Assembly: GCA_963810095.1 (NCBI GenBank)
Contig: CAWEMM010000008.1
Location: 64,001-128,000 of the forward strand
DNA from: an uncultured Chloroflexia bacterium
GTDB taxonomy: Bacteria; Chloroflexota; Anaerolineae; CG2-30-64-16
Direction of reading: 5' to 3'
Length of the DNA: 64,000 nucleotides
This document shows, in pieces, positions 10,140-29,995 of the stretch (position 1 is the stretch's first letter; each line of letters opens with the position of its first letter). The position numbers and the translations under genes were made by a program. The notes below the pieces were generated by a model that was given only the letters and a program-made list of their open reading frames with translations, was not told where the DNA came from and made no database searches.

Positions 10140-10558
10140 ATGGCAACGGGACAGTTGTAGGGACTGGCAATCGAGCGAAGCTGACGCGGCTTGATTGGCT
10201 GAAACGGGGTGGAGCGGCGCTACTAGCGTCGCCGCGGTGCTACTGGTTCAGGTCGTGGCGCTGACGCTCCGGCCGGAGCTTGTCCAGTTCAAACCACTGG
10301 ATTCGTACCCGTACGTGCTCTTCACGGTCATTCCGGCGTTGGGTGCGACGGCGGTCTTTGCCTGGCTGGCGAACGCGGAGGCGACCCGTCGCTAAGTCCT
10401 GCCGATCGGGCGGTCGTTTGCTGCTCAGCTTCATCCCGACTATGCGCTGCCGTTGGCGGGCAAGACGCTGTTGGGGAGCACCGTGGCGCGGGATGCATGC
10501 GGTGGCGGGCATCGTGACGGTGCCACCTCGTTATCAGCTATCGCAAGCAGGTGGGTAG
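10140..10558 (+). pseudogene. degraded membrane protein gene (DUF6069-like)
   Basis: GGGAGG-ATG start; hydrophobic fragments (FTVIPALGATAVFAWL, LLSFIPD, MHAVAG) spread over several frames with stops. Confidence 0.45.
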
Positions 10559-10562
10559 GTAG

Positions 10563-12496: not shown

Positions 12497-12804
12497 GTGC
12501 ATTTTCCTGACTGTGACGGGCCAATCTCGCCCGCACAAACTCAAGCGACGCCGAAGTTGCTGAGAATTATGTCATGTCTAAGAAGTCCTTCGCGCCGCTA
12601 ACGCTAGTGTTCGGGAAGTGGGGGCCGATCCGCAGCTTGGAGGTCCGGCCTCCCCGACCAGGCGCTTTCAGGGGCAATCGTGCGATCCTCAACCTTGCGT
12701 CGGTGCGCACAAGTCCGCAAACGCCGGAGCGTCTGCCTGCGCCTTGTGCCGAAGTGTGCGTGAACCTGAGTCGTCGGTGATAGCCGCAACCTCCGGTAGT
12801 GGAG

Positions 12805-13065
12805 TCATGCCCCGGTCCAAGCCGTTGCGCTCGTTTTGGCGGACGTTAGGGCCTCCGGCCAGAACACGAAGTACGCGATCGGCCCGGCGAAGCTGACGGA
12901 CGCGGCCAGGGTCCAGAGCCGCCTGTCGCCTCTGATCCTGTCTGCCGGGCGATGCCAGATATCCCAGAGTGCCATGGTCAACAGCTTGAGCTGCACGGCT
13001 GCCGCGATCTTGATCGCATTCCGTTGCCTCTCCGTCAAATCGTTCCACGTTTTTCGCTGCGTCAT
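12805..13065 (-). CDS. PLDc_N-like small membrane protein
   Basis: WNDL...ALWDIWHRP..IRG..RLW...GPIAYF; 4-nt overlap with the mrpG stop. Confidence 0.65.
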   Translation of the reverse strand: MTQRKTWNDLTERQRNAIKIAAAVQLKLLTMALWDIWHRPADRIRGDRRLWTLAASVSFAGPIAYFVFWPEALTSAKTSATAWTGA

Positions 13066-13412
13066 GGTAAGTCCCCTTTAGCAAGTCCGTCCGTAGGTTC
13101 GCCCAGGTCGTCGCGAATCAGCCCCCGCGGCCGGATGCCGACGCGCCAGGCCGCGGCGGCGAGCGCATGCGATGCGGTCGGGGCGCCGAGAATCAGCAGC
13201 AGGATCAGAACCGCGGCCTTCCCCGCGCCCAGCGGCGTCAGCAACGTCGCCGCGACGAGCAGCAGGACGACGCCAAACACGCTCACCTTGCCTGTCGCAT
13301 GCAGCCGCGTGTAGACGTCGGGCAGGCGGATAAACCCGATCACGCCGACCAGGGAGAAAGCAGTTCCGACGAGGACGGCCAGGATGGCCAGCACGAGCCA
13401 GATCTCTTCCAT
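13062..13412 (-). CDS. mrpG: Mrp Na+/H+ antiporter subunit G
   Basis: GFIRLPDVYTRLHATGK and APTASHALA motifs. Confidence 0.9.
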   Translation of the reverse strand: MEEIWLVLAILAVLVGTAFSLVGVIGFIRLPDVYTRLHATGKVSVFGVVLLLVAATLLTPLGAGKAAVLILLLILGAPTASHALAAAAWRVGIRPRGLIRDDLGEPTDGLAKGDLP

Positions 13413-13691
13413 CTAGAACATCCTCTCATCGGCCACGTATTTCGCCAGCGCGATCGCGCCGACGAAGCCCAGCGCAGCCAGGCCCAGCGCCACGTCGATG
13501 TACAACGCGTTCCGTTCGATCACGGCGATCAGAACCAGGATCGCCAGCATGAGCGTCGTGACCAGGTCAGCGCCAATCAGGCGGTCGATGAGGTTTTCTC
13601 CGCGCCAGACGCGATAGACGCTAACGGCAATCAGCGCCACGTGGATGCCCAACGAGATGCTCAGGACGAACGCCAGGACCTGCTCGAGCAT
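13413..13691 (-). CDS. mrpF: Mrp antiporter subunit F
   Basis: DRLIGADLV...YIDVALGLAALGFVGAIALAKY. Confidence 0.9.
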   Translation of the reverse strand: MLEQVLAFVLSISLGIHVALIAVSVYRVWRGENLIDRLIGADLVTTLMLAILVLIAVIERNALYIDVALGLAALGFVGAIALAKYVADERMF

Positions 13692-13708
13692 GCGCGAACA
13701 CGTCGCTC

Positions 13709-14192
13709 CTACTCCAGAATGTGGCTCAAGCAGCCGCCTGCGCAAGGAGTGCGCCGCGGCGATGGTCTCCTCCGCGTGCGACGCGTCCAGGCAGTGGACA
13801 TAGAGCGTCGCCCTCGTCGTCGACGCCGACCACCAGCTCGCCCGGCGTCACTGAGAGGGCATGGCTGCTGAGCGCGACGCCGAGCTCGCTCTCGCACTCG
13901 GAGGGTATCGCGAGGATGCCGGGCCGGATCGGGAGCCGGGGATTGAGGACGATGGCCGCCACGCCGATACCGCTGCGCACGATATCCAAGGCGAGCAAAC
14001 CGGCATAGCGGGCCAGCGCCCACAACGCCACCGGCAGGCGCCGCAGTCCTCACCGGGGAGCTTGCCGGTCGCAGGAGGAACGCAACGAACGCGGCAATCA
14101 GAAGCCCAACGAACACGTTGTTCCATGCCAGGTTGCCTGACAGCGCCAGGTAGATGGCCGTCACGACTCAGGATCGTCCAGACGTAGCCCAC
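13709..14192 (-). CDS. mrpE: Mrp antiporter subunit E (frameshifted)
   Basis: IRPGILAIP...LSVTPGELVV and LYVHCLD fragments across frames. Confidence 0.8.
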
Positions 14193-14200
14193 CTCTCCCC

Positions 14201-15683
14201 CTATCCGCCCAACACGGCCGCGATATACGATGCGGGCGAGAGCAGCGACGCGCTCACCGCCAGCGACAGGCGCAGCAGTGGCTCGGCCCACAGCCCCAGG
14301 AGCACGCACAGCCCGATCAACAGGGCCGGCGCGACGAGATGATCGCCCGCCGGCTTGGCCTTGTGCCCTTCGGGGAGCGGCTCCCACCAGATGAGCTGGA
14401 AGGCGCGGATCACATACAGCAACGTCAGGATGCCGCCCACGCCGACCAGGAAGACGGCCACGAAGTGCTCGGCCGAGATGCCGCTGCCGAAAACGAGCAG
14501 CTTGCTCACGAAGCCATTCATCGGCGGTATGCCGGCGAGCGCCAGCCCGCCGAGCAGGAACAGGCCGCCGGCAAAGGGCGCGGCCTTCCCAACGCCCGTA
14601 AGTGCGGAAAAGGCGGCCGACTTCGGCGACGCCCGGCTCGCCATCGCGCCGGCCAGCATCAGCATGCCGGCCTTCACGAGGCTGTGATTGACAGTGAAGA
14701 CGATGGCAGCCGTGATCGCGAGCGGCGAGCCCCAGCCGATCGCGACCAGGATGTAGCCGACCTGCGCCAGGGTCGAGTACGCCAGCATCCGCTTGGCGTT
14801 AGTCGCGCCCAGGGCCGTCAGCCCGCCGAAGAGCACGCCGGCCACGCCGAGCACAATCAGCAAGGGCCGCAGCGGGAAAAGCCCTTCCGGGAGCAGCAGC
14901 GTGGTCATGCGCAGGAAGCCGTAGACGCCGACCTTCACGACGACGGAAGAGAGCATGGCGCTGACGGCGGTCGGCGCGGCCGTATGGAAGTCGGGCTGCC
15001 AGAAGTGGAAGGGCACGACCGCGCTCTTGATCATGAAGAAGGCGGTCATGAGCGCCACGGCCGCGGGCAGGAGCGGCGCCGCGGGCTGGGCCGCGATGCG
15101 GCGAGCAAGGTCGGCCAGGTTGAGCGTGCCGTACGACGCGTACAGGCTGCCGGCACGCGAGCAGGAGCAAGACGCCGGCGACCAGGCTCATGTAGAAATA
15201 CTTGTAGGCGGCTTCCACGCCCAGCCGGTCATCGGCCAGGGCCGTCAGACCTGCGCCGGAGATGACAAGGAGCTCGGAGAAGACGAAGATATTGAACAGG
15301 TCGCCGGTGAGCATGACGCCGGTGAGACCCGCACAGAGGGTCAGGAACAGCGGGTAGAACGCCGGGTAACGGATGCACTGGTCGCCTGCGCCGAGGCTGT
15401 AGATGATGCCGGCGACGATCACGGCCTGCGACATGACGGCCATGGTCGCGCCCAGCAGATCGGCCGCGAAAGTGATGCCGTACGGCGCGGGCCAAGTCCC
15501 GAGCTGATAAACGACCGGCCGGCCCTGAGCGCCACACCTCGGCCAACAGCGACGACTGGCTGACGCGCAGGACACCAGTGCGGCGGCGAGCGCCCAGTAG
15601 CCGGCGCCGCGGCCCAGCCGGCGGGCGGCGAGCGCCAGCACCGCGCCGAAGAGCGGGATCAGGACCGGCAAGAGGACGAGCAT
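14201..15683 (-). CDS. mrpD: Mrp antiporter subunit D (frameshift near 15150)
   Basis: GTWPAPYGITFAAD, DLFNIFVFSE, KSAVVPFHFWQP, KVGVYG and GIPPMNGFVSK. Confidence 0.9.
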
Positions 15684-15684
15684 C

Positions 15685-16017
15685 TCAACCCTTCATCCCC
15701 GCGACCTCGTCGGAGTCGCTCGTGCGGTAGCGGATCGTGATCACGTAAACCAGGGCCAGGATGAAGGAGAAGGCCGCCATGCTGATCACGATGGCGGTCA
15801 GGATGAGCGCCTGCGGCAGCGCGTCGCTGCGTTGCCCGGTCGCCGTCGCGTACGCGGGAATGAGCCCCTGGTAGGCGCCGGTTGCGAGCAGGAACAGGTT
15901 GACCGCGTTGGACAGCGCCATGACGCCGATGGCCGAGCGCAGCACGTTGCGGCGGAGCAGCTGGAATACGCCGATGCCAAAGAGCGCGCCGATCGCCAGC
16001 GCCTTCAATAGATCCAT
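15685..16017 (-). CDS. mrpC: Mrp antiporter subunit C
   Basis: SNAVNLFLL and DALPQALILTAIVIS. Confidence 0.9.
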   Translation of the reverse strand: MDLLKALAIGALFGIGVFQLLRRNVLRSAIGVMALSNAVNLFLLATGAYQGLIPAYATATGQRSDALPQALILTAIVISMAAFSFILALVYVITIRYRTSDSDEVAGMKG

Positions 16018-16022
16018 CTTGC

Positions 16023-18917
16023 CTACTGCTCCATTTCCACCGGCCGGTCCTTCGGATGGCCGATCGCTTCCAGGATGAACGAGACGCCGCCGAGCACGGC
16101 GGCGAAAATGGCGACCTCGAAGACGAACGACGTGCTCAGATGGAAGCCCGCGGGCAGGACCAGGCCGGCGGCTTTCCCGTAGTCGAACTGGGCGAAGAAC
16201 TCGTCGGCGAGAAACGCAGCCAGCGTGCCGTTCACCAGCGCGATGAGCAGGCCGCCGACTATCATGCGGGCGGGGCGCAGCCACCAGAGCTGGCGCTGGG
16301 TCTCGGCATACCCGAAGACGACGTACCAGAACGAGACGGCCAGCCCGACGATGACAGCCGCGGTAAACCCGTCGCCGCCCTGGTTATGGCCGTACATCAT
16401 CTGGACCGCGGCGAGGACCAGGCTGAGCGGCAGCAACGCATAGCCCAACACCCGCACAAGCGGCGAGGTCCGGCCGCCCGAAATGCCCAGGATACGCGGG
16501 ACATCGCTCCGGGCGTCGTTGCGAACCTCGTCCGGGCGCAAGACATGTGCCGGCATCCAGGGCTTGTGCGCCGCATAGCGCAGCAGGGTGTACACGGCCA
16601 GCCCGGCCATGGCGAATACGGCGATCTCGATGAGCGTGTCGAAGCCGCGAAAGTCGATCACGACGGCGCCCACGATGTCGGCCGCGCCGACGGCCGGCTT
16701 GGCGTTGGCCTCGTAGTAGGGCGTCACGGCCGACGGCCGCGGGCGCGAGGCGAGCGCAACGAGCGCCAGCGACGCGACGAGCAACCCGGCGCCCGTGGCG
16801 ATCGACGGCATCGCGGATCAGGCCGGGCCGGCTCTGCGCGAAGGTGAACTCAGAGGCCCGCTCGCGCTCGGCACGCGGCAGGTTGCTCAAAGTGAGCGTC
16901 AGGATCACGACGCTGAGCAGGTCGACAACCACCTGCACGAGCGCAACGTCGGGCGCAGGCTCGAGGGCGATGATCACCGCGACGGCAAGCCCGGACGCAC
17001 CAAGCGCCAGGATCGCGGGAAAATCACGGCGCAGGAAGACGCTGAGCAGCGCGGCGCCGGCGGCGAGCAACAGGGTGAACAGCCGCAGAATCGCCAACTC
17101 GTCCGTCAGGTCCAGGGGCGCAAGCTGAGTGGGCAGCGGCACGCCGCCGAACAGCACCACCAGCGCCAGTACGCCGGCAATGATCACGAAGAGGTACCGG
17201 CGGAGCTGGCCGCTCTGCGTACGGGTCGCGAGCGCACCCGCCGCGTCGAGCCCGGCGATCACGCCGTCGTAGACCTGGTTGAAAGAGAAACGGCCGCTGA
17301 GCGAGCTGGCAGCGAGGCGGGCGCGCAGGGGGTCGCGGAAGATGAACAGCAGCGCGCCGATGCTGATGGCGATCGGCGCTCAGAATCAAGGGCGGGTTAA
17401 TACCGGTCCAGAAGGCCAGCGAGACCTTGACCGGCGCGCCGTATGCGGCGCCCGCCGCAGCGGCCAGAAAGCCGGCCAGGAAGGCAGGCTCGGGCCCGAT
17501 GCCGACGAGCAACGAGAGCAGCGCGGGGATCGCGGGCGTCGCGATCATCGGCCAGGGCGCCTCGTGGCCGCGCACGGACGGATCACGCGGGCGGCCGAAG
17601 AACGTATCCCACACGAACAGGCCGGCCTGCGCGAGCAAGAGCGCGCCGGCGGCCACTGCCGCGGCCGGAAAGAGCAAGTTGAGCGCGGCGGGGACCGCAG
17701 GATGGATCACCGTGGCGAGCAGGGTCTCCTTGGCCAGGAAGCCGAAGAGGGGCGGCAGGCCGGCCATCGAGAGCCCGGCGATGATGCGCAACCTCGGCCG
17801 TTACGGGCATCCACCGGCGCAACCCGCCCAGCCGCCGGAGATCGCGGGTGTGGGCCTCGTGATCGACGCTCCCGGTGACGAGAAAGAGCGCGCTCTTGTA
17901 GAGCGCGTGGGCGAGGACTGCGATGACCAGGGCCTTGAACGCGATGTCCGTATCCTGGCCGATCAGCATCACCATGGCGCCCAGTTGGCTGATCGTCGAG
18001 TATGCCAGGAGGCCCTTGAGATCGTTCTGCCGGAAGCCCTGGTACGCGCCGAGCAGCATCGTGACCAGGCCGACGAGGCTGAGCGTCCAGAACCAGGCAT
18101 CGGTTTGACCGATTGCCGGGTTCATCCGGGCGAGCAGGTAAATGCCGGCCTTCACCATGGTGGCCGAGTGCAGATAGGCGCTCGCGGGCGTCGGCGCGGA
18201 CATCGCTTCGGGCAGCCAGATGTGCGCCGGGAACTGCGCGCTCTTGGTGAAGGCGGCAAAGGCAAACAACCCGAAGACGGGGAGATACCACGGGCTGCTG
18301 CGCAGCAGGGCGCCACTGGATAGGACGGTCTGGAAATCGACTCCGCCGGCGATCGAACCGACCCAGACCACGCCCGCCAGGAGCGCGATCCCCCCGCCGC
18401 CCGTGATGAAGAGCGACTTCATGGCGGCTGCCCGCGCTTTCGGGTCCTTCTGCTTGTACCCGATGAGCAGGAAAGAGGTGATGCTCGTGCACTCCCAGCA
18501 GAACCAGAGGGTCACGAGGTCGCCGGCCAGCACGAGGCCGAGCATGGCCGCCATAAACAGGAACAGGTACGCGTAGAAGCGCGGCGCCGAGGGGTCGTCC
18601 GCGAGATAGTAGCCGGCATAGATGACGACAAGGGCGCCAATGCCGGTGACCAGGAGCGCAAACAGCCCGGCCAGGCCATCGAGGTAGAACGAGACGCTGA
18701 GGCCGAGCGACGGCATCCACGGGAGGGCCAGCGTCTCAGGGGGCGCGCCTTTTGCGGGAATGAGGGACAGCAGCAGTATGAAGGCGAGGGCTGGCAGCAA
18801 GGCCAGGACCCAGCCGGCCACTCGGGGCGAGACGCGGCCGAACCACGCACGCCAGGCAACTGCAACGAGTGCGCCGGCGAGGCAGAGCAGTAGCGGGACC
18901 AGCAGCGTGACGTCCAT
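16023..18917 (-). CDS. mrpA: Mrp antiporter subunit A fused to B (group 2 MrpA'; at least 3 frameshifts)
   Basis: KSAQFPAHIWLPEAMSAPTPASAYLHSATMVKAG, APDVALVQ, DFRGFDTLIEI and GHNQGGDGF in consecutive overlapping frames. Confidence 0.85.
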
Positions 18918-19019
18918 GGGAAGTGAGCGGCGCCCAACTCAACTGCGCTATTCTAGCACGGCTGGCTGGCGAACGCGGGCCGGATAGCCGCCGTGTCGTC
19001 GAAGGGCGGCACCGCGGCG

Positions 19020-19469
19020 CTATTCGTCCCTGGCCAGCAGGCGAATGATATCTGCCCGGGTGATGATGCCGACCAGGCGCCCGGCCTGCAACACCAGGAC
19101 CCTCCCGATATCGTGCCTGGCCATCTCCCAGGCGACATGCCCGATCGAGTCGTCTGCACCAACCGTCACGGGATTTCTGCCCATGATATCGGCCGCCGTA
19201 TGATGGCGAGCGGCAGCATAGATGTCTGCGAGCCGCTCAGGCTGGACCCATTCGGCAAAGAGCTTCGGCATCTTTACAGCTGAAAATGGCATCCCCTTCT
19301 GCTTCAGGAACAAGTCGTTTTCAGTCACGATCCCAAGGACACGTCCTTCCCCGTCAGTCACCGGCACGCCGCCAATCTTGCGCTCGGTCAGGAGCCTGGC
19401 GATTTCGGCGACTGTCGTTTCAGGTCGTACGGTGACTGGGTTGGCGGTCATGATCTCACTAGCTTTCAT
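19020..19469 (-). CDS. tandem CBS domain protein
   Basis: IMTANPVTV...VLGIVTENDL / IMGRNPVTV...LVGIITRADI. Confidence 0.9.
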   Translation of the reverse strand: MKASEIMTANPVTVRPETTVAEIARLLTERKIGGVPVTDGEGRVLGIVTENDLFLKQKGMPFSAVKMPKLFAEWVQPERLADIYAAARHHTAADIMGRNPVTVGADDSIGHVAWEMARHDIGRVLVLQAGRLVGIITRADIIRLLARDE

Positions 19470-19511
19470 CTTGCTGACTCCGTCGATATTGTTCAAATCT
19501 GTCTGAAGGGG

Positions 19512-19877
19512 TCACGTGGCGTAGTTCTTCCGGTTCTCGCCGCGCACCTTCAGGACAGGGACCGCGAACATGAAGCCCGAGTTAGGGCGGTCCAGGTCAC
19601 CCAGGATCGCCTCCGTTGCGTGGAAGAAAGCATCGAGGTCGACGCGGTCTGGCAGCACGGTGAACAGACTGCGATGGTGCAATTCCTCGCGCTCGAGCAG
19701 GCTGCGCAGACCCGGGAACAGCGGCAAGTCGTCGCGCAGCGCGTTCTGGGCCAGGTACTGGCCGGCGCCGCTGCTTTCGAGGATGGTAATGCCGCCTGCG
19801 CCGGCAGCGTGCCAGCCGTTGATGATATCGTTCAGGCGGTCAGGGTCGAGCAACACGAGCCATACCATTGTTGACAT
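19512..19877 (-). CDS. PII-like protein
   Basis: GAGGITILESSG and C-terminal GDLDRPNSGFMFAVPVLKVRG, similar to the PII fold. Confidence 0.7.
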   Translation of the reverse strand: MSTMVWLVLLDPDRLNDIINGWHAAGAGGITILESSGAGQYLAQNALRDDLPLFPGLRSLLEREELHHRSLFTVLPDRVDLDAFFHATEAILGDLDRPNSGFMFAVPVLKVRGENRKNYAT

Positions 19878-19890
19878 GCGAAGTTCACTC

Positions 19891-21115
19891 CTATGCACCA
19901 TTTGAGGCTTGGGGCGCCGGCGCGGCGGGCTTGCGTGCGAAGACGACGCGGAGCAGGATCGGCGTCACAAGCGTGGTGACGAGCACCATGATCACGGCGA
20001 TGGAAATCAGGTCCGGGGGCACGACGCCGTTGATGACGAGCAACTGCGCCACGATCAAGCCGACCTCGCCACGCGAGATCATGCCGACGCCCAGCCTTAA
20101 CGACTCTGCCGCGGGAGAAGCCCCCCAGGAGGGCGCCAGCCCCGCTGCCGAGAACCTTCGAGATCACTGCCACGACCGTGAGGAGCGCTGTCAGGAGCAC
20201 CAGTTCGCCGCGAAGCGCCCAGATGTCAACCTGCAGGCCAATGTTCACGAAGAAGATCGGCACGAAGAAGCCATACGCGAGCGCACTGATGCCCTCCTCG
20301 ATCCGACGGTGCGACCGCGCGCGTCCGGCAAGGATGCCGGCAAGAAATGAACCGGTGATCATGGCGACGTGGCCCACCACCTCGGCCGACCAAGCGAAAA
20401 GCATCGCGACTACCGCTGCCGTAGCCAGCAGTCCCTGGCTGATCGGCAGGTGATCCACCCGATTAAGCAAACGCGGGACCAGGATCCAACCCAGCCCGCC
20501 GAAGAGGGCGACATAGAGCACCACCCGGCCCAACAGGACGGCGATATCAGCCGGGCTTGAGCCACCGCCCGTTGCGATGGCGAGAAATATCGAAAGGAGC
20601 AGTATGACGAGGACATCATCGACTACCGCCGCCCCGAGCAGCGCAACACCTTCGCGGCTGCGCAACACGCCGAGCTCGAGCAGGGTCTGCGCCGAAATGC
20701 TGACGCTCGTTGCGGTGAGGAGCATCCCAATGGCGATCGCCTGGGTCGTCTCATAGCCGAATGGAAGCGCCACGCCCGCGCCCATGACCAGGGGTACGAT
20801 GACGCCAAGAAGGCCCGCAAGGATGACCACTTTCCCGGCCTTGCGCATCTGGCTCAGGTCGGCCTCGAGGCCGGCCAGGAACATGAGCAAGATGACGCCA
20901 AGCTCCGCTAGCTCGGTGATCGTCTCGGGCAGCTGCTCACTGGTGAGGAATGGCAGCGCCTGGATGTTCATGAGCGAGGGGCCCAACAGCAAGCCGGCCA
21001 GGATCTCACCGAGCACGGCCGGCTGGCGAAAGCGCGTGCTGAGGTAGCCCGCAGCCTTGGCAACGGCGATCAGGACACTCAGCTCAAACAGGAGCTGTAA
21101 GACTGGCGACAACAC
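19891..21115 (-). CDS. CPA2 cation:proton antiporter (NapA/GerN-like; frameshift near 20110)
   Basis: QPAVLGEILAG, ATSVSISA, GAAVVDDV, FVPIFFVNIG and MISRGEVGL. Confidence 0.85.
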
Positions 21116-21121
21116 AACCTC

Positions 21122-21523
21122 CTACTCACTCGCTTGCCATATCTCGGCCAACCAATCGAAGATCACCCGGTTCAGCAGCTACAGATTGTCGACCTGGCAG
21201 TGCGCTGCTCCGCCGATTTCCTCAGTGAGGATAGCCAGCCGCTTGCGCGGGTTCGGCAGGCGCTCGTACGTCTGCCGCGTCTGCTCCAGCGTCGCCTGCG
21301 CCTCGCTTTCGCCCGCGATGCGGCGGGTCAGGGCCGGCCGGGGAGCCTGCCAGCTCACGGCGTCGCCGTCTCCGATTCGCTCGGCCGCTTGATAGCACAC
21401 TCACGCGTCGCTGCCGCAGACGGCCTGCCGGCCCAGGATCCACGAGAAGTAGTAATCCATATCCTTGTGCTCGAAGCGGTATTTCTCCGCGCTGCGCCGC
21501 GCAACTGGCTGTGCGTCGGTCAT
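21122..21523 (-). pseudogene. internally deleted alpha/beta-hydrolase remnant
   Basis: N-terminal MDYYFSWILGRQ..GSD*..CYQAAERIGDGDAVSW joined directly to C-terminal GGAAHCQVDNL*LLNRVIFDWL; two in-frame stops; catalytic core missing. Confidence 0.55.
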
Positions 21524-21551
21524 AACTCACCTCGTCTGACCGGCCGGCGGG

Positions 21552-22541
21552 TCACGGGCCGATCCCCCGGGTATAGAGGAATGCCAGGCCTGCGCCATAG
21601 ACGACGATGATCGCGAGCGCATCGGCTTCCACGAACAGCAGGCGCCGCTCGACACGTGCCAGGTTGCCGATCAGGGCCAACCCAGTGAGCACGAGGCCGA
21701 GGAGCGCGACCAGGGCGAACGCGGGCGGAATGGCGCTCAGGAAGGGGCCGGGCCGGTAGAAGAAGTCGCTAATGCCCAGCGCCAGCATGTTGAACGCGTT
21801 GCTGCCGAAGAGGTTGCCGATAGCGAGGTCGTAGGCGCCCAGACGCACGGCCGCGATCGAGGTCGCGACCTCGGGCAGCGAGGTCACCACGGCCACTAAC
21901 GCCGTGCCGACGAAGCCCGTCCCCATCCCCGTCAGCTCGGCAATCTGCTTGCTGCTGCTCACCAGCCACGGTGAGACCAGCACCAGGATGAGCGTGGCGC
22001 CGCCGAAACCCAACAAGGCCACCCAGAGCCGCGGCACACCGGCCAGCTCTTCCGGCTCGAGCGGCGTCTCACCTGCCGCGGCATTGTTGGACTGTATCAG
22101 GCGCACGCCGATGACATAGGTGGCGATCAGCAACAGGCTGTCGACACCGACATGCCCGATGGTGATGTCGACGTCGGCCAGAATGAAGAATGCGGCCATC
22201 CCGATCAACAAGGTGGCCAGGCTGGCGGTGAGCGCATGCTTCAGGGCGACGCGGCGCAAGATGCGGGCCTGGCGGCCAACGACATCGAGGACGGCCAGCA
22301 GCAGCATGTTGAACATGTTGCTGCCCATCAGGTTACCCGCGGCCAGCTCGGGCACACCCTGGCTAAAGGCGTTGATCGTCGTCAGAAGCTCGGGCAGCGA
22401 GGTCGCGCCCGCGAGCAGCAACGTGCCGACGAAGAGGCGGCCCAGGCCGGTGCGGGCGGCGATCGCATCGCCGTACTGTGCGAGCTTCGTCGCGGCAAAT
22501 ACGAGCAGCGCAGAGCTGCCGAAGAAGATGAGCCAGGGCAC
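21552..22541 (-). CDS. Na+/Ca2+ exchanger (CaCA family)
   Basis: Alpha repeats GATSLPE / VTSLPE and GNLMGSN / GNLFGSN. Confidence 0.9.
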   Translation of the reverse strand: MPWLIFFGSSALLVFAATKLAQYGDAIAARTGLGRLFVGTLLLAGATSLPELLTTINAFSQGVPELAAGNLMGSNMFNMLLLAVLDVVGRQARILRRVALKHALTASLATLLIGMAAFFILADVDITIGHVGVDSLLLIATYVIGVRLIQSNNAAAGETPLEPEELAGVPRLWVALLGFGGATLILVLVSPWLVSSSKQIAELTGMGTGFVGTALVAVVTSLPEVATSIAAVRLGAYDLAIGNLFGSNAFNMLALGISDFFYRPGPFLSAIPPAFALVALLGLVLTGLALIGNLARVERRLLFVEADALAIIVVYGAGLAFLYTRGIGP

Positions 22542-22905
22542 TAGCGCACTCCGGGATCGGTGGCGCGAGGCGGGGCTCCCTTCATGAAAGCCAGGGGCCA
22601 GGCAGCCCAACTCCCGGCGCCCGAGACTGCGAGATCGCCCACCACCAGTTCGGTGGCCGTCAGGCACTGCTCTGCCGCCGCCTCGATCGGGGACGATGCC
22701 GAACAGGGTGAAGTTGGCCTGTTCGGTTTCAATCCCGAGGTTCTCGACGTTGCGCCGCGCGATGTACAAGCCCGAGCGCGGAACGGCGCCGGTGCGCTCC
22801 TGCGCCTTCGACCGAGGTGAGGCCCACTGCCCCCGACTTTGTCCAGCCTGCCACTACTTCATCGAGGTGATCCACGTCATCCAGGACCAGCATGATCATG
22901 AACAC
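22541..22905 (-). CDS. second PII-like protein (frameshifted)
   Basis: MFMIMLVLDDVDHLDEVVAGW..SGAVGLTSVEG...FTLFGIVPD...VVGDL..GAGSWAAWPL parallels 19512..19877. Confidence 0.55.
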
Positions 22906-22908
22906 CTT

Positions 22909-24021
22909 CTACGCCTCCCAGGAACGCTCGCCTTCCATCACGAACTGCGTCAACTCCGAGACGCTCAACTTATCGATACCCAACTTGTCGAGCGTCCGTC
23001 CCCGCCGCCAGTAGTCGGTGCGGTGGATGACGCACGCCAGCCGAATGATGGCATCCATGCCGCGGACCGAAACCCCGAAGTGCTGGCCGAGCGCCGCGAT
23101 GGGCACGAGGCTCATCGGCACGTCTTCGAAGATGTAGCGATGGTTGAGGGTGCTGGGCGCATTGATGCCGAAGTACCCCGGCTGGTTGTGAATCGCTTCG
23201 TTGAGGTCGGCGCCATCCGCATCATACGCCAGCTTAAGCCACTCCAGGCCGGTGCGCCCGCGCAAGCCGAGCGAGGCGGCCACGGTTACGCGCTCGCGGT
23301 CCAACGCTTCGAGCACGCGGGCAACCGACTGCGTCACGCCGTCAATGTAGAACTGAAAGTCGCCGTGTGTGGATTCGATGCGCCCGGCGTTCAGGATGGT
23401 AAGCGCCGGGTGAAAGATGGCGCCCATGTTATTGAGGCCGGTGTGTAGGACACTAACGCCGTCGATGTACTGGGGGTAGGCCGGTAGCAGCGCGTCCAGC
23501 ACCCGCGGCGTGCGCGTCGCAGGTAGTGCGGCGACGGGCACGGCCTCTTTGATGCGGAAGATGCGCGCCTGGGCCGGACCGTCCGAGCGGCTGGCATAGA
23601 TGAACGTTTCGGCCTCGGCGACCGTGACGTCGGCGCGGCAGCCGTGATCGCGCAGCACCTTGTCGAACTCGATGGCGCCCAGTGTGCGGCCCGGATGCAA
23701 GACAAGGATCTGGCCGTCTCGGAGGTGCGGCGCGGCAGCCTTCGCGATATCGGCGTGGGCGGAAGAAGGCACCACCACCATGACCAGGTCGGCAGCGGCG
23801 AGCGCCTCGGCCATGTCGGACGTGACACACCCGATGCGGCCGAAGCCCCGCGGCCCGTCGGCGCTCTCCAAGTCGATGCCGCCGCGTGCCTTGATGGCGG
23901 CTACCCGCTCGGGCGTCCGGTTGTAGAGCGTGACCTGGCAGCCCAACAAGGCCAGGTGCGCGGCCATCGCCTTGCCGCCGTGGCCCGCGCCGATCACGGC
24001 ATAGGTTCGAGATGTCGGCAT
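22909..24021 (-). CDS. NAD(P)-dependent opine (octopine/nopaline) dehydrogenase family protein
   Basis: GAGHGG Rossmann motif; AETFIYASR, NMGAIFHP, LDRERV and HRYIFEDVP; GGAGGA RBS. Confidence 0.9.
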   Translation of the reverse strand: MPTSRTYAVIGAGHGGKAMAAHLALLGCQVTLYNRTPERVAAIKARGGIDLESADGPRGFGRIGCVTSDMAEALAAADLVMVVVPSSAHADIAKAAAPHLRDGQILVLHPGRTLGAIEFDKVLRDHGCRADVTVAEAETFIYASRSDGPAQARIFRIKEAVPVAALPATRTPRVLDALLPAYPQYIDGVSVLHTGLNNMGAIFHPALTILNAGRIESTHGDFQFYIDGVTQSVARVLEALDRERVTVAASLGLRGRTGLEWLKLAYDADGADLNEAIHNQPGYFGINAPSTLNHRYIFEDVPMSLVPIAALGQHFGVSVRGMDAIIRLACVIHRTDYWRRGRTLDKLGIDKLSVSELTQFVMEGERSWEA

Positions 24022-24047
24022 GTTTCCTCCTCCGCGCAGGGGCTTCC

Positions 24048-25394
24048 TCAGTCCTGCGGCGCGCCCTTGGTGCGTCCCATCCAGTCCAGGTTCGCAAACT
24101 CGCCGAAGTGCTCCTTGAAGATGCGGTAGTACTGGAGCTCTTCCTTCGTCCGCAGCTGCCAGCCGTTCGGCAGGACACGCTCGGCCTCGAAGTCGCGATC
24201 CGAAACGCGGCTGCCCGCGTAGTCCGCCAGCAAGTCGCCAACCCCCGCGCCCTCCCAGAACTTGGACTTCGTCCGGGTGAGGATCTTGTCCGGCAGCAGG
24301 CCGATTAAAGCCTGGCGCAGGATCCACTTTTCGACGCCATCGCGCAGCTTCAGCTCGGTGGGTATGCGCAGCGCATAGTCGACGAAATCAAGACCCAGAA
24401 ACGGCACGTGCGCGAGCAGGCCGTGCGCCGCAGAGCAGCGGTCGACCCGCTGCAGCGCGGTGTTGTGGAGGCGCTTCGTGATGTCGAGCAACTCGGAGGT
24501 CAGCGCGGCCTGCGGCATCTCCTTCAGGTAGGCGTAGCCGGCGAACAACTCGTCGCCGCCCTCTCCCGAAAGAGTGGCCGGCGCATAATCCGCCGCGGCG
24601 CGACCGGCGAGGTAGTTGATGATGCTGGAGCGCACCAGCAGGGCATCAAATGACTCGAGGTGATAAATGACAGCCGGAAGCACGGCGAGCATTTCGTCGA
24701 AAGTGACCTCGATCTCGTGGTGTTGCGAGCCGATGAAGGATGCGACCGTGCGAGCCGCGGCCAGATCCGGCGCGCCGCATACTCCTGCCGCAAAGGTGTG
24801 CAAGCGACGCACGGTGCGGGCGGCAAGCGCCGCGATGCCGCTGGAATCGAGGCCCCCCGAGAGCCAACATGCCATGTCGTCCTCGTCCGTGACGCAGTCC
24901 TGCACCGCGGTTGTCATTCGCCGCCGCAAATCCTTCGCAACGCTCGGAAAATCGGCTGCGATGGGTGGTTCGGAATGAAGCCGGTAGAACGGTCGGATCT
25001 CGGCCCCGTCGTACAGGGTGCCGGGAGGCAAGGAACGCACCTCCCTCGAAAATGGCAGGAGCGCCTTGACTTCCGAGGCGAAGTATAGCGCCCCAGCGTC
25101 GCCGTGCGTGTAATACAGCGGCGCAACGCCGAGCGGATCGCGCAGCAGGCTCAACCGGGTCATCTCCGCGGTCGCGCGCGCCATGCGGCCTGAGCCCGCA
25201 CTGTCTTGCGCGGCCTGGGCGCGCTCGAGGGTTTGCCCTGCGAACGCCTGGCTACGCGACCACGCCACGCCCAGGGTCGCGGCCTCGGTCTCGATCACCG
25301 CGCGCCCAGCGGGGCCGCGGTGCGCCTGCACAGCCAACATGGACTGGACGTCGGAACGCGAGCATGGCGGGCTACAGCCAGCGATTGCTGACAT
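24048..25394 (-). CDS. asparagine synthetase-like ATP-dependent amide ligase lacking the N-terminal catalytic Cys
   Basis: Starts MSAIAG (canonical MCGIAG); HRGP, RDPLGVAPLYY, ASEVKAL, SGGLDSS, SGEGGDELFAGY and EKWILR. Confidence 0.85.
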   Translation of the reverse strand: MSAIAGCSPPCSRSDVQSMLAVQAHRGPAGRAVIETEAATLGVAWSRSQAFAGQTLERAQAAQDSAGSGRMARATAEMTRLSLLRDPLGVAPLYYTHGDAGALYFASEVKALLPFSREVRSLPPGTLYDGAEIRPFYRLHSEPPIAADFPSVAKDLRRRMTTAVQDCVTDEDDMACWLSGGLDSSGIAALAARTVRRLHTFAAGVCGAPDLAAARTVASFIGSQHHEIEVTFDEMLAVLPAVIYHLESFDALLVRSSIINYLAGRAAADYAPATLSGEGGDELFAGYAYLKEMPQAALTSELLDITKRLHNTALQRVDRCSAAHGLLAHVPFLGLDFVDYALRIPTELKLRDGVEKWILRQALIGLLPDKILTRTKSKFWEGAGVGDLLADYAGSRVSDRDFEAERVLPNGWQLRTKEELQYYRIFKEHFGEFANLDWMGRTKGAPQD

Positions 25395-25406
25395 TGGTTG
25401 CTCCTT

Positions 25407-27058
25407 CTACTGGCCGGGCAGATCCAGCGCAGCCAGTCGCGTTGCCTCGGGCAAGACCTCCGTGCCGCTTGGCCCGACCGCCACGCAGGCGCCCCGGCGA
25501 TCGATACGCGTCACGACGGACCCGCGCCCGAAGCGGTTGTTGCGCAGCTGCGGCGCGTCGAGGATGCCACTCGTCACGGCGGCGCACAGGGTGCCCGGAT
25601 CAGTAAAGGGATCGTGTACGCCGGTCCCGGCGCGGCCGCCGATCGCTTGGAGTGTCAGCCGAGCTTCTGCCGCCAGCTCGGCGGCGCGTTCCTGCACGCG
25701 CATCGTTTCCAGCATGTCCGGCGCGCCGGCCAGCGCGTTCTCGATGGCCCGCCGCGCCACCTTGCATGCCGCAATCACATCCTCGGCCGTCGCCGCGTGG
25801 TGCGCCTCGGTATGGCCCACGACGTGCACGATATGCGGCTTGAGGGCCATCTGCAGATAAGTCGCTGCGGCCAGGTGGCCGCGTGCGGCCTCGGGATCCA
25901 GCGGGTGGCTCAGCAGGCCGACGCGAACCTGACGGTAGATGCGGAAGTCCTCTCCAGCGAGCGGCTCAATGAGTTGGAGACACGCCTGCATCTTCGCCAG
26001 ATCCATGGCATCGGACAGGCCCGGTGGGCTGTTGAACATGAATTGCGCGATGTAGTCGTGGACGCCGGACGCGCGCGGCGTTGTAGGCGGAGAGATAGGC
26101 GGCAACGACGAAGACGACGTCCGGCGCATCGCGCATGCCCCAGTGATGCGGCTCGTTGAGCTCGACGGGGATATTCGCTCGACCCGTACCAGGCCATCAA
26201 CTCCTGATGGAGACGGATCGACGACGCCAGGTCGTGTGGCCCGCGGCCGTCCATGGCGTTGAACCAGAAGAGCGGCACTGCCGCCCACGCGATGTTGATG
26301 GTATCCACGTACATCTCGGCAAGACGCACGAAGTCGTCAGTTCCCGAGTAGGTGCGCATGAGGGGGAAGTTGCCGCGGCGGCTGGCGGCATAGAGCGCGC
26401 GGTAGTTCTCCGGGCTCCGCACCGGCACCCCGCCGGCGCCGGTGCGCCGCGGGTCCTGGCGCTCCGGATGAAAGAAGTTCTCCTGCGCATCCTGGTCCGT
26501 GCCGAGCGAGATGACGTCGAGCACCTTCGCGTCGGCGATCTGCACGATCCCTGCCAACGTCGCTTCCATCGTCGGCAGGCCGAAATGGTGCCGGATCAGC
26601 GGGTACGGCGCCTTCCAGGCGATCCGCTCGACGGTCGACTGCGGGTAGGCATCCTCAGTTGCGGCTGCGGGGGAACCGCGCAGATATGCGGTTACTTCTT
26701 CAGGCGGCTGCGAGCCGTCGAAAACCCGCTCGAAGAAGCCGATCCTGGCGGCCCGTTCGGCCACGGGCGGCGTGCCGCCGAACGCGAACCGCACCCCACG
26801 CTCGCGGAGGTCGTCGGCCGCCTCGGCGAACTCGGCCAACAGCCGCTCGCCGGTGTCCGGTGTCAGACGGTACGAGATGCCGACGAGGTCCGCGCCTTCA
26901 GTCACCGCTACGTGCAGCACTCGCTCCACCGGTACTGCGGGGCCGAGAAAGACCGTGCGCCAGCCGGCCGCCTCCGCGAGGCGCAGGAAGTTCATCACAC
27001 CCGCGACGTGCACGCACTCCCCTAACGCGGCGGCCACAACCGTCTTCTGTCCCACCAT
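25407..27058 (-). CDS. uncharacterised cobalamin-binding enzyme: N-terminal B12-binding domain plus large C-terminal domain (frameshifts near 26170 and 26070)
   Basis: GECVHVAG (variant of DxHxxG), VGISYRL and AFGGT B12-domain motifs; IRHHFG, MRTYSGT, HHWGMRDA, QFMFNSP and HVVGHTEAHH in the catalytic region. Confidence 0.75.
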
Positions 27059-27098
27059 AAACGGCGCCCCTCTCACGGAAATTTCATCCGCATTCATC

Positions 27099-27150
27099 TT
27101 GACAAAGGATCATTCCTCCCTATACTACAAGTGTTACTTCCCGGTGTCAA
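27099..27150. promoter_or_regulatory. overlapping divergent sigma70-type promoters
   Basis: Plus strand: TTGACA 27099, N16, TATACT 27121. Minus strand: TTGACA 27150-27145, N17, TAGTAT 27127-27122. Confidence 0.65.
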
Positions 27151-27174
27151 GTCGCACCCCAGAAGGAGCGCAAG

Positions 27175-27999
27175 ATGGCGCAAACCGAACCCCTACCCAA
27201 TCTTTTGCTGATGATACGTGGACTGCTGCCCTCGCTCAACGAGCAGGAGCAGAAGGTCGGCCAGTACGTGCTGGACCACCCGTACGAGGTCATCCATCTC
27301 GCCATGGTGGAGCTTGCCGAGCGCTGCGGCGTCGGCGACACGACGATCTTCCGCTTCTGCCGCCGGGTGAAGACGGAGGGGTACCAGGATTTCAAGATCG
27401 CCCTCGCGCAGGAACTGACGCCCGCCAACCCACCCGTGTACGAGGCGGTCGCGGCGGGCGACAGCGCGGCCGCGGCCGCGCAAAAGGCGATCGCCGGCGA
27501 CGTCAAGGCGCTGGAGGACACGCTCCGCGTGCTCGACCTGGCGGCGTTGGACCGGGCCGGCGACGCCCTGCTGCGGGCGCGACGCGTCGACGTCTACGGG
27601 TCGGGCGGCGCCGCGGTCGCCGCACACGAGCTGCAGTACAAGCTGCTGCGGCTCGGGCGTGCGCGCGCTGGCGCTCACCGACGCGCAGATGGAGGTCATG
27701 TCCGCCGGGATGCTCACGGCAGACGACGTGGCGGTGGGGTTTTCGCACTCGGGCACGGCCGCGGACGTGCGTCAGGCGCTGGCCAAGGCGAAAGAGTGCG
27801 GCGCGACCACGATCGCGGTCACCAACCACCCAGCCTCGCCGATCGCACAGCTGGCCGACATCAGCCTCTGCACGGCCGCGCAGGACGCGGTCGGGCATGG
27901 CTATCCGCTGGGCGCACGGGTAGCTCAGGTCGGCCTGATCGACGTGCTGTATACGTGCCTCTTGCTCAAGCAGGGAAATGCGGTCCGAAGCTCAAATAG
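27175..27999 (+). CDS. RpiR/MurR family regulator (HTH + SIS; frameshift near 27660)
   Basis: ELAERCGVGDTTIFRFCR...GYQDFK HTH; YGSGG, FSHSG and AVTN..SP SIS motifs. Confidence 0.85.
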   Translation: MAQTEPLPNLLLMIRGLLPSLNEQEQKVGQYVLDHPYEVIHLAMVELAERCGVGDTTIFRFCRRVKTEGYQDFKIALAQELTPANPPVYEAVAAGDSAAAAAQKAIAGDVKALEDTLRVLDLAALDRAGDALLRARRVDVYGSGGAAVAAHELQYKLLRLGRARAGAHRRADGGHVRRDAHGRRRGGGVFALGHGRGRASGAGQGERVRRDHDRGHQPPSLADRTAGRHQPLHGRAGRGRAWLSAGRTGSSGRPDRRAVYVPLAQAGKCGPKLK

Positions 28000-28012
28000 T
28001 GGGGAGCCAGCA

Positions 28013-28495
28013 ATGATCGCCTCGTGCATGAAACGCCAGGTGGTGTCGGTTGGGCTGGAGACGACGGCTGAAGAGGCCGCGCGCCTCGTCATGTCGCACC
28101 ACATCGGCACGCTGCCGGTGGTAGATGAGCAGGGCGTGCTGGTCGGGGTCGTCCGCCTGCAAGACCTGCTGCAGGTGTTCATGCCCGACTTTGTGGCGCT
28201 GCTCGACAACATCGACTTCATTCCCAGCTTCGGCGCCGTCGAGATCCTGCAGCCCCACGACCTGCCGGGCGCTCGGAATCGGCCGATGCGAGACCTGATG
28301 CAGGAGCCGGTCTCGGTCGAGCAGACGTCCGGGTTGCTGCGCGCGCTCGCAACACTGTCCAAACACCAGCTGGCGGATCTGCCCGTGGTCAACGACGCGG
28401 GCGCGCTCGTCGGCATCGCCTCGCGCGTGGACATCGCGGCCGAGTTCTTCGCCCGCTGGCTGCAGGCTGCGTCGTCGCAGCGGCCGCAGCGGTGA
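28013..28495 (+). CDS. tandem CBS domain protein
   Basis: LPVVDEQGVLVGVV / LPVVNDAGALVGIASRVDI; GGGGAG RBS. Confidence 0.85.
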   Translation: MIASCMKRQVVSVGLETTAEEAARLVMSHHIGTLPVVDEQGVLVGVVRLQDLLQVFMPDFVALLDNIDFIPSFGAVEILQPHDLPGARNRPMRDLMQEPVSVEQTSGLLRALATLSKHQLADLPVVNDAGALVGIASRVDIAAEFFARWLQAASSQRPQR

Positions 28496-29788
28496 ACCTG
28501 TCCCAGTTTGCCGCAACCGCGGTGTTCGTGGCCACGTTTGTCGCCATCCTGTCCGAGCGTCTGCACCGGACGATCGCGGCGATGGCCGGCGCGGGCGTGA
28601 TGCTCGTCGTCGGGATGATCGCTGGGCTTCTACGACCAGGAAGCGGCTCTGCGCGCGATCGACTTCAACACGCTCGGACTGCTGCTCGGCATGATGATCC
28701 TTGTCCGCATGCTGCAGCAGACCGGCTTCTTTCAGTTTGCCGCGATTGCGGTGGGGAAACGGGCGCGCGGCCGCCCGCTCCTGCTCCTTGTCGCGCTGGG
28801 CACGCTCACGACGGTCCTCTCGATGTTCATGGACAACGTGACCACCGTCGTGCTCATCGCGCCGGTGACGATCCTGATCGCCGAGATCCTGGGCATCAGC
28901 CCGATCCCGCTGTTGATGGCTGAGGCGCTGCTTTCCGACACCGGCGGCGTCGCGACCCTGGTGGGCGATCCGCCGAACGTCCTGATCGGGTCGGCCGCCG
29001 GGTTCAGCTTCGTTGCCTTCCTCACCCACCTCGCGCCGATCGTGCTGGTCGCCTGGCTGGTCGCACTCGTCGTGCTGCGGATCGTCTTTCGGCGCGAGCT
29101 CAAGCAGGGGCCGCGGGACGTCGCTGCGCTGCTCGAGATGGACGAACGAGCCGGCCTCCACGATCCGGTCGCGCTGCGGAAGATCCTGATCACGCTGGGC
29201 GGGGTCATCCTGTTGTTCTTCCTGCAGGAGCGGCTGCACCTCGCGCCGGGCGCCATCGCGCTGCTGGGAGCCGCGGCCGCGCTGCTGTGGGTGCGCCCGG
29301 ACGTCGAGGAGACGCTCCGGCACATCGAGTGGCCCGTCCTGCTGTTCTTCGCGGCCCTGTTTGTCGCGACCGGCGGACTGCAGGCTTCAGGCGTTCTGGC
29401 GCTGCTCGCCGACCGGGTGGCGGGTCTCGCCCAGGATGACCTTCTGGCCGCGAGCTTACTCATGCTCTGGCTGGCTGCCGGCATCTCGGCAGTCGTCGAC
29501 AACATCCCGTTTACGATCGCGATGCTGCCGGTCATCGCACAGCTGGGCACGCTGGGCGTAAATGCCGTCCCGCTCTACTGGGCGCTGGCCCTGGGTGCGG
29601 GGTTCGGCGGAAACGGGACGCCGATCGGTTCAACCGCTAACGTAATCACCGTTTCGCTCAGCGAGAAAACCCGCACGCCAATCACGACGCGCATCTGGCT
29701 GCGTTCGGGGCTGCCGGTCATGCTGGCGACGTGCGCGGTTGCGACGTTGATGTTCGTCCTGTTCTTCGGCTGGATGCAGACGCGGTGA
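28492..29788 (+). CDS. ArsB/NhaD (IT superfamily) transporter (frameshift near 28625)
   Basis: IDFNTLGLLLGMM, DNVTTV, GGVATLVGDPPN, VDNIP and GGNGTPIGSTAN. Confidence 0.85.
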
Positions 29789-29815
29789 CCTCGCGCGGGA
29801 CGGAGGCACGGTAGG

Positions 29816-29995
29816 ATGCAGCGACTTCCGATCCTGGTGGTCTTGCTCAGCGCGCTGGGCGGGATCTGGTTTCTGGTCCTGGCGGTGCAATTTCTGCGCC
29901 GGGGCGACTGGACGATGGCCGTGCTGGCCGGCGCGGCGGGGCTTGGTCTGTTGTGGTTGGCACGCGAGGATTTCTCCGGGGCGCGCCGGCTATAA
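29816..29995 (+). CDS. small 2-TM membrane protein (59 aa; below the ORF-track cutoff)
   Basis: GGAGG RBS; MQRLPILVVLLSALGGIWFLVLAVQF... Confidence 0.5.
   Translation: MQRLPILVVLLSALGGIWFLVLAVQFLRRGDWTMAVLAGAAGLGLLWLAREDFSGARRL

Follow-up and report, generated by a model that had tools for sequence, protein, structure and literature searches.

A B12-dependent enzyme–opine dehydrogenase gene pair at the head of a cation antiporter run in a Chloroflexota genome: a candidate link to cyclic di-AMP-governed ion homeostasis

A B12-dependent enzyme encoded beside an opine dehydrogenase (ODH) was predicted in 2009 as a new family of proteins that depend on B12, 'always adjacent' to octopine/nopaline dehydrogenase (pfam02317), with D-Ala:D-Ala ligase and asparagine synthase genes near the pair in several organisms (Zhang et al., PMC2667541). 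The family then covered 11 genomes and was given no function, and ion transporters, DarA and cyclic di-AMP (c-di-AMP) riboswitches are not mentioned in the accessible part of that study. The pair has been an orphan since then, yet it is very widespread. The present work concerns a copy in an uncultured bacterium of the Chloroflexota (Anaerolineae-type), assembly G000 (6.13 Mb, 16 contigs, 65% G+C, 88.5% completeness), within a stretch of 64,000 nucleotides (C8:64001-128000), here called the window. In contrast to the 2009 account, the pair heads a 14-kb run of antiporter genes in the window; in agreement with it, a gene for a protein resembling AsnB stands by the pair. A sequence-only reading of the window had proposed that the product of the three enzymes may be a previously unknown osmolyte; the gene set itself had already been predicted in 2009, according to the accessible text of that paper.

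In the accessible parts of two papers on c-di-AMP, this nucleotide controls potassium and osmotic homeostasis, is bound by CBS-domain transporters and blocks expression when bound to its riboswitch, and DarA is a PII-like protein with a function described as unknown (PMC7900238); the essentiality of c-di-AMP converges on potassium and glutamate homeostasis (PMC7857571). The c-di-AMP regulon of the Firmicutes includes kimA and ktrA riboswitches, DarA/PstA, DarB/CbpB and CpaA. The same riboswitch family and the DarA equivalog flank the B12–ODH pair in other loci or at the paralogous copy on contig C6 of this genome.

The enzyme set probably makes or handles a stress metabolite, and we give about an even chance to its taking part in a control of K+, Na+, Ca2+, pH and turgor that c-di-AMP governs. 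New in this work are the largest transporter fusion observed, the DarA evidence inside one genome and the assignment of the ODH to an acid type. A literature search, which was limited in subscription journals, found nothing that ties the pair to c-di-AMP or to ion transport. If the assignment to c-di-AMP-governed control is true, the enzyme set may be a metabolic partner or target for DarA-type receptors. The tie to c-di-AMP and cation antiport gives the search for the product a narrower setting: cultured bacteria that have the pair, such as Chloroflexus, Roseiflexus or Anaerolinea, under changes of salt, K+ or pH.

An operon-like run of enzyme and antiporter genes

The minus strand from 27058 to 12805 carries a single co-oriented string of genes with the B12 enzyme first (ATG at 27058), and this is a real operon-like run. 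The gene list, order, orientation and start codon given by the sequence-only reading are all borne out by open reading frame (ORF) lists, Pfam and tblastn with the intact proteins of relatives. The B12 gene is followed by the asnB-like gene, odh and a PII-like gene (22577-22899, end approximate), which overlaps the start of a gene for a CaCA-family cation/Ca2+ antiporter (~22601..21552; Na_Ca_ex, E 2.3e-34). Beyond a short ORF at 21116-21551 lie genes for a CPA2 cation:proton antiporter (~19930-21115; Na_H_Exchanger, E 2.8e-55), a second PII-like signal protein (19512-19874) and a stand-alone CBS-pair protein (19020-19496; CBS, E 1.6e-34), and then the Mrp genes. Intergenic gaps, counted from the B12 enzyme, are 12, 26 and 9 bp, an overlap, ~436 bp, ~55 bp or an overlap, 15 bp and 102 bp; beyond the gap of CBS and MrpA/B the genes nearly abut. 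The earlier statement that no gap exceeds about 100 bp thus holds for most junctions and fails at the ~436-bp stretch of the short ORF, the sole gap well over 100 bp.

All Mrp domains are found in one cluster (Proton_antipo_N/M, MbhD, MbhE, MnhB, Oxidored_q2, Proton_antipo_M, MNHE, MrpF and MrpG), which is collinear with that of G007, a genome of the same genus, at 77-83% identity after the frames are followed. The cluster is of the fused A/B type, with six genes and a complete set of subunit domains A-G. The fused MrpA/B gene (16024-18917) aligns to residues 46-1008 of the 1008-residue G007 protein and is followed by genes for MrpC (15685-16017; Oxidored_q2, E 2.8e-19), MrpD (14204-15683), MrpE (~13728-14192), MrpF (~13413-13688, by Pfam and tblastn) and MrpG (13062-13412; Pfam E 6e-19). 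The run ends with an ORF for a membrane protein of 86 residues (12805-13065), whose weak likeness to PLDc_N and DUF2568 stays under both curated cut-offs (PLDc_N: E 0.0014, 19 bits against 23.3).

The B12 gene and the divergent rpiR gene are separated by a region of 100 bp with two strong promoter-like sites. The site facing the run (27122-27150, minus strand) has TTGACA and TAGTAT at a distance of 17 nt and agrees with the consensus at 10 of 12 positions; its TGTCAA/TTGACA elements are shared with G007 and another relative, G003, in the alignment. The site facing rpiR (27099-27126, plus strand) has TTGACA, 16 nt and TATACT, agrees at 11 of 12 positions and is kept in all three aligned genomes. 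Inverted repeats were sought in the intergenic stretch at 27030-27200 and none was found, and Rfam gave no match at the gathering threshold within the window. Terminator-like sites stand at chance level (13 against 8.5 +/- 2.8), all 13 lying inside mapped ORFs, and weak promoter-like sites are seen inside the run at 19849 and 19072.

The divergent arm on the plus strand consists of genes for an RpiR/MurR-type regulator with HTH_6 and SIS domains (27160-~27976), a CBS-pair protein (~28013-28465; 69% identity to the G003 protein) and a permease (28480-29788, start approximate). This confirms the rpiR-CBS-ArsB order proposed earlier, with the permease placed in the CitMHS/ArsB superfamily.

Recurrence of the linkage and its tie to c-di-AMP

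The surroundings of the pair were surveyed in 80 Chloroflexota loci (1.28 Mb of flanks, many contigs being short) and in a separate set of 80 loci of other lineages, and recurrent neighbours were obtained by unbiased clustering of all ORFs of at least 90 residues, with shadow ORFs excluded. The nearest proteins and all 80 related genome records are named as Chloroflexota (Anaerolineae, Thermoflexales, Chloroflexia, Roseiflexus and Caldilineales), and the B12 gene occurs in at least 19 of 30 relatives. The odh gene lies at most 400 bp from the B12 gene in 70 of the 80 Chloroflexota loci, downstream in 67 and upstream in three. A CaCA, CPA2, ArsB or Mrp transporter stands near the pair in 21 of these loci. 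There are 24 such transporter places in the 1.28 Mb against 1.9 expected at the density of this genome, an enrichment of ~13x that is rough, its background coming from one genome and its loci being kin to one another. CaCA (10 loci) and CitMHS/ArsB (9) are joined as recurrent neighbours by an ABC ATPase (16), a CBS pair (9), the PII-like protein (8), CPA2 (6), DUF389 (5) and an MGH1-like glycosidase (5). CaCA (10/10), DUF389, MGH1 and a DUF2179 protein are always on the operon strand, and the PII-like gene is so in seven of eight cases.

The transporter link does not behave as one inherited block, because the transporter state changes at least 21 times across a FastTree tree of 89 B12 proteins; the DarA state changes at least 11 times. 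In L110 (Thermoflexales), a single strand carries x-CBS, Mrp, B12, odh, a long and a short AsnB gene, an ABC transporter and CaCA. G003 combines rpiR-CBS, B12-odh-AsnB-CaCA and a CaCA-TrkH-TrkA...Mrp group, in which Mrp is convergent, with a P-type ATPase. An odh gene of G005 and a short AsnB gene of G012 lie apart from the B12 gene, each beside rpiR and a Na+/H+ exchanger. Mrp linkage is found in three genomes only, namely the window genome, G003 and L110. Thus, the linkage of the enzymes to ion transport proposed by the sequence-only reading recurs in many orders and branches, but the exact 14-kb arrangement is lineage-specific and is not conserved even within the genus.

Two further neighbours deserve mention. 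A membrane protein of 193 residues with DUF5698 and DUF2179 is encoded in 19 of the 80 loci (for example at L107 1833-2414) and is the second commonest same-strand neighbour; it is absent from the window. A GDE_C/MGH1-like glycosidase, of a family named after mannosylglycerate hydrolase, is encoded in the window at 48098-49321, and 5 of the 80 loci have a related gene directly upstream of, and co-oriented with, the B12 gene.

The PII-like proteins of the run may resemble known regulators of transporters. Pfam P-II is matched by seven of eight members of the PII-like family (best 5e-8), the copy after CPA2 in the window staying under the cut-off with E 0.057, and the fold model of the family matches PII/GlnK (E 2.4e-5; template modelling (TM) score 0.57-0.72). 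The predicted PII fold is that of GlnK, which regulates AmtB, and of SbtB, which regulates SbtA, and the fold matches include 2ns1, the AmtB-GlnK complex. Unlike in those systems, the partner here is an antiporter, the PII-like gene lying directly after CPA2 or before CaCA in eight loci. Ligand sensing and the gating of the adjoining antiporters are the probable roles of the PII-like and CBS proteins. The PII-like family showed no detectable kinship to the DarA family in hhalign (probability 6%). A second pair of CPA2 and PII-like genes is present in the genome (G000:C9:655672-657263; 71% and 56% identical to the pair in the window), and CPA2, PII-like and DarA-type genes stand in a direct row less than 10 kb from the B12-odh pair in L101 (19108-21058) and L105 (17319-19272).

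The tie to c-di-AMP comes from riboswitches and receptors. Of the metagenome loci of other lineages, which contain divergent members of the B12 family, 62 were scanned, and 7 of them have the riboswitch RF00379 upstream on the operon strand (87-103 bits), followed by odh-B12 in five and by Ddl-like-odh-B12 in two; Ddl-like ATP-grasp ligases occur in three of these seven loci (L117, L157 and L185) and in 7 of the 80 loci overall. Among 20 Chloroflexota loci scanned there is one such case, L032, with the order DarA, riboswitch, B12, odh. The riboswitch thus leads the pair in 8 of 82 loci scanned, and it has no match elsewhere in those loci. DarA-type c-di-AMP receptors are encoded in 16 of the 80 Chloroflexota loci, directly after odh in seven. 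The genome under study encodes a diadenylate cyclase, and all three of its CdAMP_rec matches lie on C6 by the paralogous B12-odh pair. Two of the three belong to one tandem-domain protein encoded 228 bp upstream of that pair, which clears the cut-off of the NCBIfam DarA equivalog with 177 against 140 bits. DarA genes and riboswitches give the enzyme set a tie to ion and osmotic control that is independent of the transporter linkage.

Around the C6 paralogue (L021 2476-4530 and 6321-9083) there are also two MerR regulators that resemble CarH and have B12-binding domains, along with a P-type cation ATPase spread over two ORFs; genes for a GNAT protein and an MFS carrier run divergently from the DarA gene. 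Fluoride riboswitches adjoin the B12-odh pair in two metagenome loci (L121 7487-7557 and L174 132-193).

Several observations weigh against placing the enzyme set under c-di-AMP-governed ion control, besides the roughness of the enrichment. The same-genus genome G007 has odh-asnB-B12-rpiR without the part of the window from 6738 to 22900; its odh is directly followed by homologues of window 3095-6738, and its Mrp genes adjoin a CrcB homologue on a different contig. No transport run is seen in G001 and G002, such a transporter is missing from the flanks examined in 59 of the 80 Chloroflexota loci, and no cation transporter recurs among the 80 loci of other lineages. The window has CBS, PII-like and CPA2 proteins as candidate counterparts of those in the Firmicutes regulon, but it has no riboswitch by Rfam and no CdAMP_rec or DarA, and RF00379 is absent genome-wide. 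The nucleotide also governs cell-wall and central metabolism, so that a link to it does not single out osmolytes. The public sequencing runs that contain identical short pieces are labelled as freshwater sediment and hence give no pointer to a salty or alkaline habitat. Frame breaks are ~3x denser in the region than in the remaining genome compared, and real decay of some genes may therefore apply.

A rival reading is a chance neighbourhood, in which the enzymes and antiporters would be independent units of a stress-gene island that share an orientation without sharing a function. The lineage-specific juxtaposition agrees with this, as do the weak internal promoter-like sites, the 436-bp interruption of the run and the remainder of the window, where genes for resistance to ions and metalloids, arsenic- and fluoride-type ones among them, are gathered. 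However, transporters stand near the pair far above the genome density, in many orders and branches and mostly on the same strand, and we consider mere chance unlikely.

The three enzymes and a candidate product

The B12 enzyme (25407-27058) is a protein of ~545 residues with 88% identity to its G007 orthologue, and the family is strongly conserved, with 72-76% identity to the first sequence among 10 aligned proteins. It has more than 6400 homologues, which carry generic names only, and 849 cluster representatives, and no NCBIfam model matches the protein. The B12-binding domain is recognised by PF02310 (E 6.5e-10), and the ligand motif reads GECVHVAG, with the His and Gly of the canonical DxHxxG motif, as quoted in the accessible text of PMC2667541, and with Cys at the expected Asp. 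The Pfam Met_asp_mut_E scores, 17.7 and 21.8 bits, stay under the cut-off of 26.6, so that the protein falls outside glutamate mutase by sequence, and a profile search of the PDB reached B12 domains only and no GlmE chain.

The structure gives a closer likeness. A model of the intact paralogue in the same genome, of moderate confidence (predicted local distance difference test (pLDDT) 73.4), has its best Foldseek match in the glutamate mutase subunit GlmE (6h9e_B, E 6.8e-13, TM 0.56/0.62), with 1cb7_B at E 1.2e-11 and a TM range of 0.55-0.62; ornithine and lysine aminomutases are next best, and the N-terminal domain matches GlmS. From this model, the barrel of the MutE-like enzyme is predicted to be a GlmE-type TIM barrel. 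The glutamate mutase GlmS/GlmE (1cb7, 6h9e and 1i9c) is the best structural likeness for barrel and B12 domain alike, but it has two subunits, whereas the protein here is one fused chain with an N-terminal B12 domain. Four members of the B12 family (P0128, P0131, P0161 and P0163) are much longer, with 732-1266 residues, and are possibly fused to other domains.

The ODH (22909-24021) matches PF02317 Octopine_DH with 158.7 bits against a cut-off of 30 and the structure of ArODH/CENDH (1BG6) with E 1.8e-77. In the 1BG6 alignment it has Arg at ArODH position 111 (LHPGRT) and Gly at position 198 (NNMGA). Metagenomic ODHs from hot springs (mODHs) with Arg and Gly act by preference on L-Asp and L-Glu, together with pyruvate and NADPH, and mutagenesis has shown that an exchange of the two residues exchanges the substrate preference (PMC10787698). 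All six mODHs of that study carry Arg and Gly at both specificity positions, as does the ODH of the window, and one of its supplementary sequences (mODH-45) is ~70% identical to the latter, as judged by eye only. The terms 'B12', 'cobalamin' and 'neighbo...' are absent from its main text. On these residues, the ODH of the window is assigned, as a putative member, to the acid-preferring subclass of PF02317.

The AsnB-like protein (24048-25394) matches PF00733 Asn_synthase (E 5.5e-61), and its synthetase domain is intact with an invariant PP-loop SGGLDSS. The glutaminase domain is shortened by three deletions, and the N-terminus reads MSAIAG (short forms MS(A/G)IAG) against MCGIAG in long forms. 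Ser replaces Cys2 in all four short forms, whereas Cys is kept in both long forms, so that the N-terminal catalytic Cys of glutamine-hydrolysing AsnB is missing and the Asn_synthase domain with its PP-loop is retained. The NCBIfam AsnB model gives 325 against 499 bits, and the protein stays under every curated cut-off. Weak NCBIfam matches lead to models of beta-lactam synthetase, lasso/macrolactam cyclase and the NAGGN amidotransferase AsnO; the protein presumably resembles the glutaminase-dead beta-lactam synthetase. Judging from these residues, the glutaminase should be dead, and the enzyme is expected to activate a carboxylate by adenylation and to turn it into an amide with no hydrolysis of glutamine. 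AsnB homologues lie near the pair in 20 of the 80 loci by clustering and in 21 by tblastn, of which 10 have the short type (48-59% identical), two are borderline at 43-44% (L082 and L108) and 11 have the long type, with both types in two loci.

A pathway from these three enzymes can be proposed. The adenosylcobalamin (AdoCbl) enzyme would rearrange part of the glutamate/aspartate pool, for example to 3-methylaspartate, and the ODH would condense an acidic amino acid with pyruvate, using NAD(P)H, to an N-carboxyethylated compound; the suggested substrates are Glu, Asp or 3-methylaspartate with pyruvate. The AsnB-like enzyme would then amidate, or cyclise, a carboxylate at the expense of ATP and so lower the net charge. 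Expression would rise when c-di-AMP is low, and the product would serve ion and osmotic balance. In this lineage, the enzyme genes would be placed under one divergent promoter, beside the RpiR regulator, together with CaCA, CPA2 and Mrp, assuming co-transcription. In a further-reaching form of this scheme, which we hold to be possible and still doubtful, Glu and Asp of the counter-ion pool would be converted by an undescribed AdoCbl-dependent pathway into a new compatible solute, amidated and of the opine type, whose synthesis would be switched by c-di-AMP through riboswitch or DarA and coordinated with Na+/K+/Ca2+ antiport through the PII-like and CBS sensors. Among known compatible-solute pathways, the NAGGN amidotransferase model gives the AsnB-like protein only 105.6 against 570 bits, short of membership, and the Pfam tables of the region contain no Ect, betaine or similar compatible-solute family. 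A new B12-dependent solute, if it exists, would bring with it a radical rearrangement of a new kind, and the stress metabolites of bacteria would gain a new class.

The same enzymes could also work in the opposite direction. Glutamate mutase is classically catabolic and ODHs are reversible. A route for the breakdown or salvage of an imported acidic amino acid or opine would have the ODH acting oxidatively and the mutase in the manner known from glutamate fermentation, with import by the CitMHS/ArsB permease and with RpiR as a substrate-sensing repressor. The conserved divergent arm of RpiR and permease is consistent with such a route, and so are a LacI regulator and the MGH1-like glycosidase upstream in some loci. 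However, an ATP-spending AsnB-like enzyme or a Ddl-like ligase in the operon fits synthesis better, methylaspartate ammonia-lyase or other downstream catabolic genes are not recurrent in the surveyed loci, and OFF switches that answer to c-di-AMP are typically those of genes for uptake and homeostasis. A catabolic role is therefore distinctly unlikely.

The ligases raise the question of the cell envelope, another process tied to c-di-AMP. AsnB homologues amidate peptidoglycan residues in several bacteria, and the set could make or amidate an unusual acidic amino acid for a stem peptide or cross-bridge of peptidoglycan. The Ddl-like ligases of the riboswitch-led operons would agree with this, and genes for PBP1 and for MprF occur on the opposite strand, within 3-5 kb, in five loci each. 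However, Mur ligase or other wall genes are absent from the operon strand, and the strongest recurrent partners in the Chloroflexota are ion transporters and small sensor proteins, which makes a function in the envelope very unlikely. It is highly improbable that the product is a staphylopine-like polycarboxylate chelator and that CaCA, P-type ATPases and a metal-carboxylate permease of the CitMHS type handle it along with divalent cations: an Asp/Glu-pyruvate opine is a tricarboxylate, CitMHS is a metal-citrate family by its Pfam name, CaCA is the commonest transporter partner, and P-type cation ATPases stand by the C6 paralogue and in G003, but no nicotianamine-synthase-like gene or metallophore importer was seen among the recurrent neighbours, and the partnership with c-di-AMP, CPA2, Mrp and Trk speaks for monovalent cations.

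Frame breaks and the rest of the window

The region contains at least 14 frame changes relative to the proteins of the same genus, every one of them +1. They fall in the genes for the B12 enzyme (two, with extra bases near 26173 and 26077 and three frames), the PII-like protein before CaCA (two, one near 22684, again with three frames), CPA2 (one, near 20100), MrpA/B (three, at 17785, 17375 and 16804), MrpD (one, at 15155), MrpE (three, at 14168, 14046 and 13810), RpiR (one, at 27655) and the ArsB-type permease (one, near 28620). A DNA alignment to G007 shows the breaks to be single extra bases in the window, outside long homopolymers. The stretches compared from the rest of the genome show 10 frame changes, seven of them +1, in 32.9 kb, against nine, all +1, in 10.1 kb of the region.

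Contigs from four public DNA runs (depth 2-6) show over the region only events in which one base is left out, at sites including 14167, 15155, 17375, 22684 and 28619, and never an inserted base. The contigs without the extra bases differ from the window at ~5-7% and hence come from relatives, and the difference-free pieces cover no frame-break site. Region-specific gene decay was considered first and was set aside, the breaks being all +1 and frame changes occurring elsewhere in the genome too. A technical cause is favoured because of these two features, and the extra bases are most likely one-base insertion errors of the assembly. The truncated "mrpA'" and most of the "pseudogenes" of the sequence-only reading are therefore probably assembly errors. 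Only the short ORF at 21116-21551 looks like a true remnant within the run: it has an in-frame TGA after ...GSDA and a TAG further on, and no Pfam family and no homologue in the genome or loci compared were found for it. Outside the run, a FAD_binding_3 monooxygenase gene at 10592-11820 is split across two overlapping ORFs, probably by one more one-base assembly error.

The remaining window is rich in resistance-type genes. A row resembling a fluoride response (53720-58019) encodes enolase, a phosphatase of the His_Phos_1 family, inorganic pyrophosphatase, CrcB and a protein with four CBS domains, but the window gave no match to a fluoride riboswitch at the gathering score. An arsenic-type set (30303-53165) comprises three ArsR genes, an SBF/Acr3-type carrier, two ArsP_1 permeases and two LMWPc (ArsC-like) phosphatases, together with a fused double methyltransferase, FmdE-like proteins, TauE and thioredoxin/DsbD genes.

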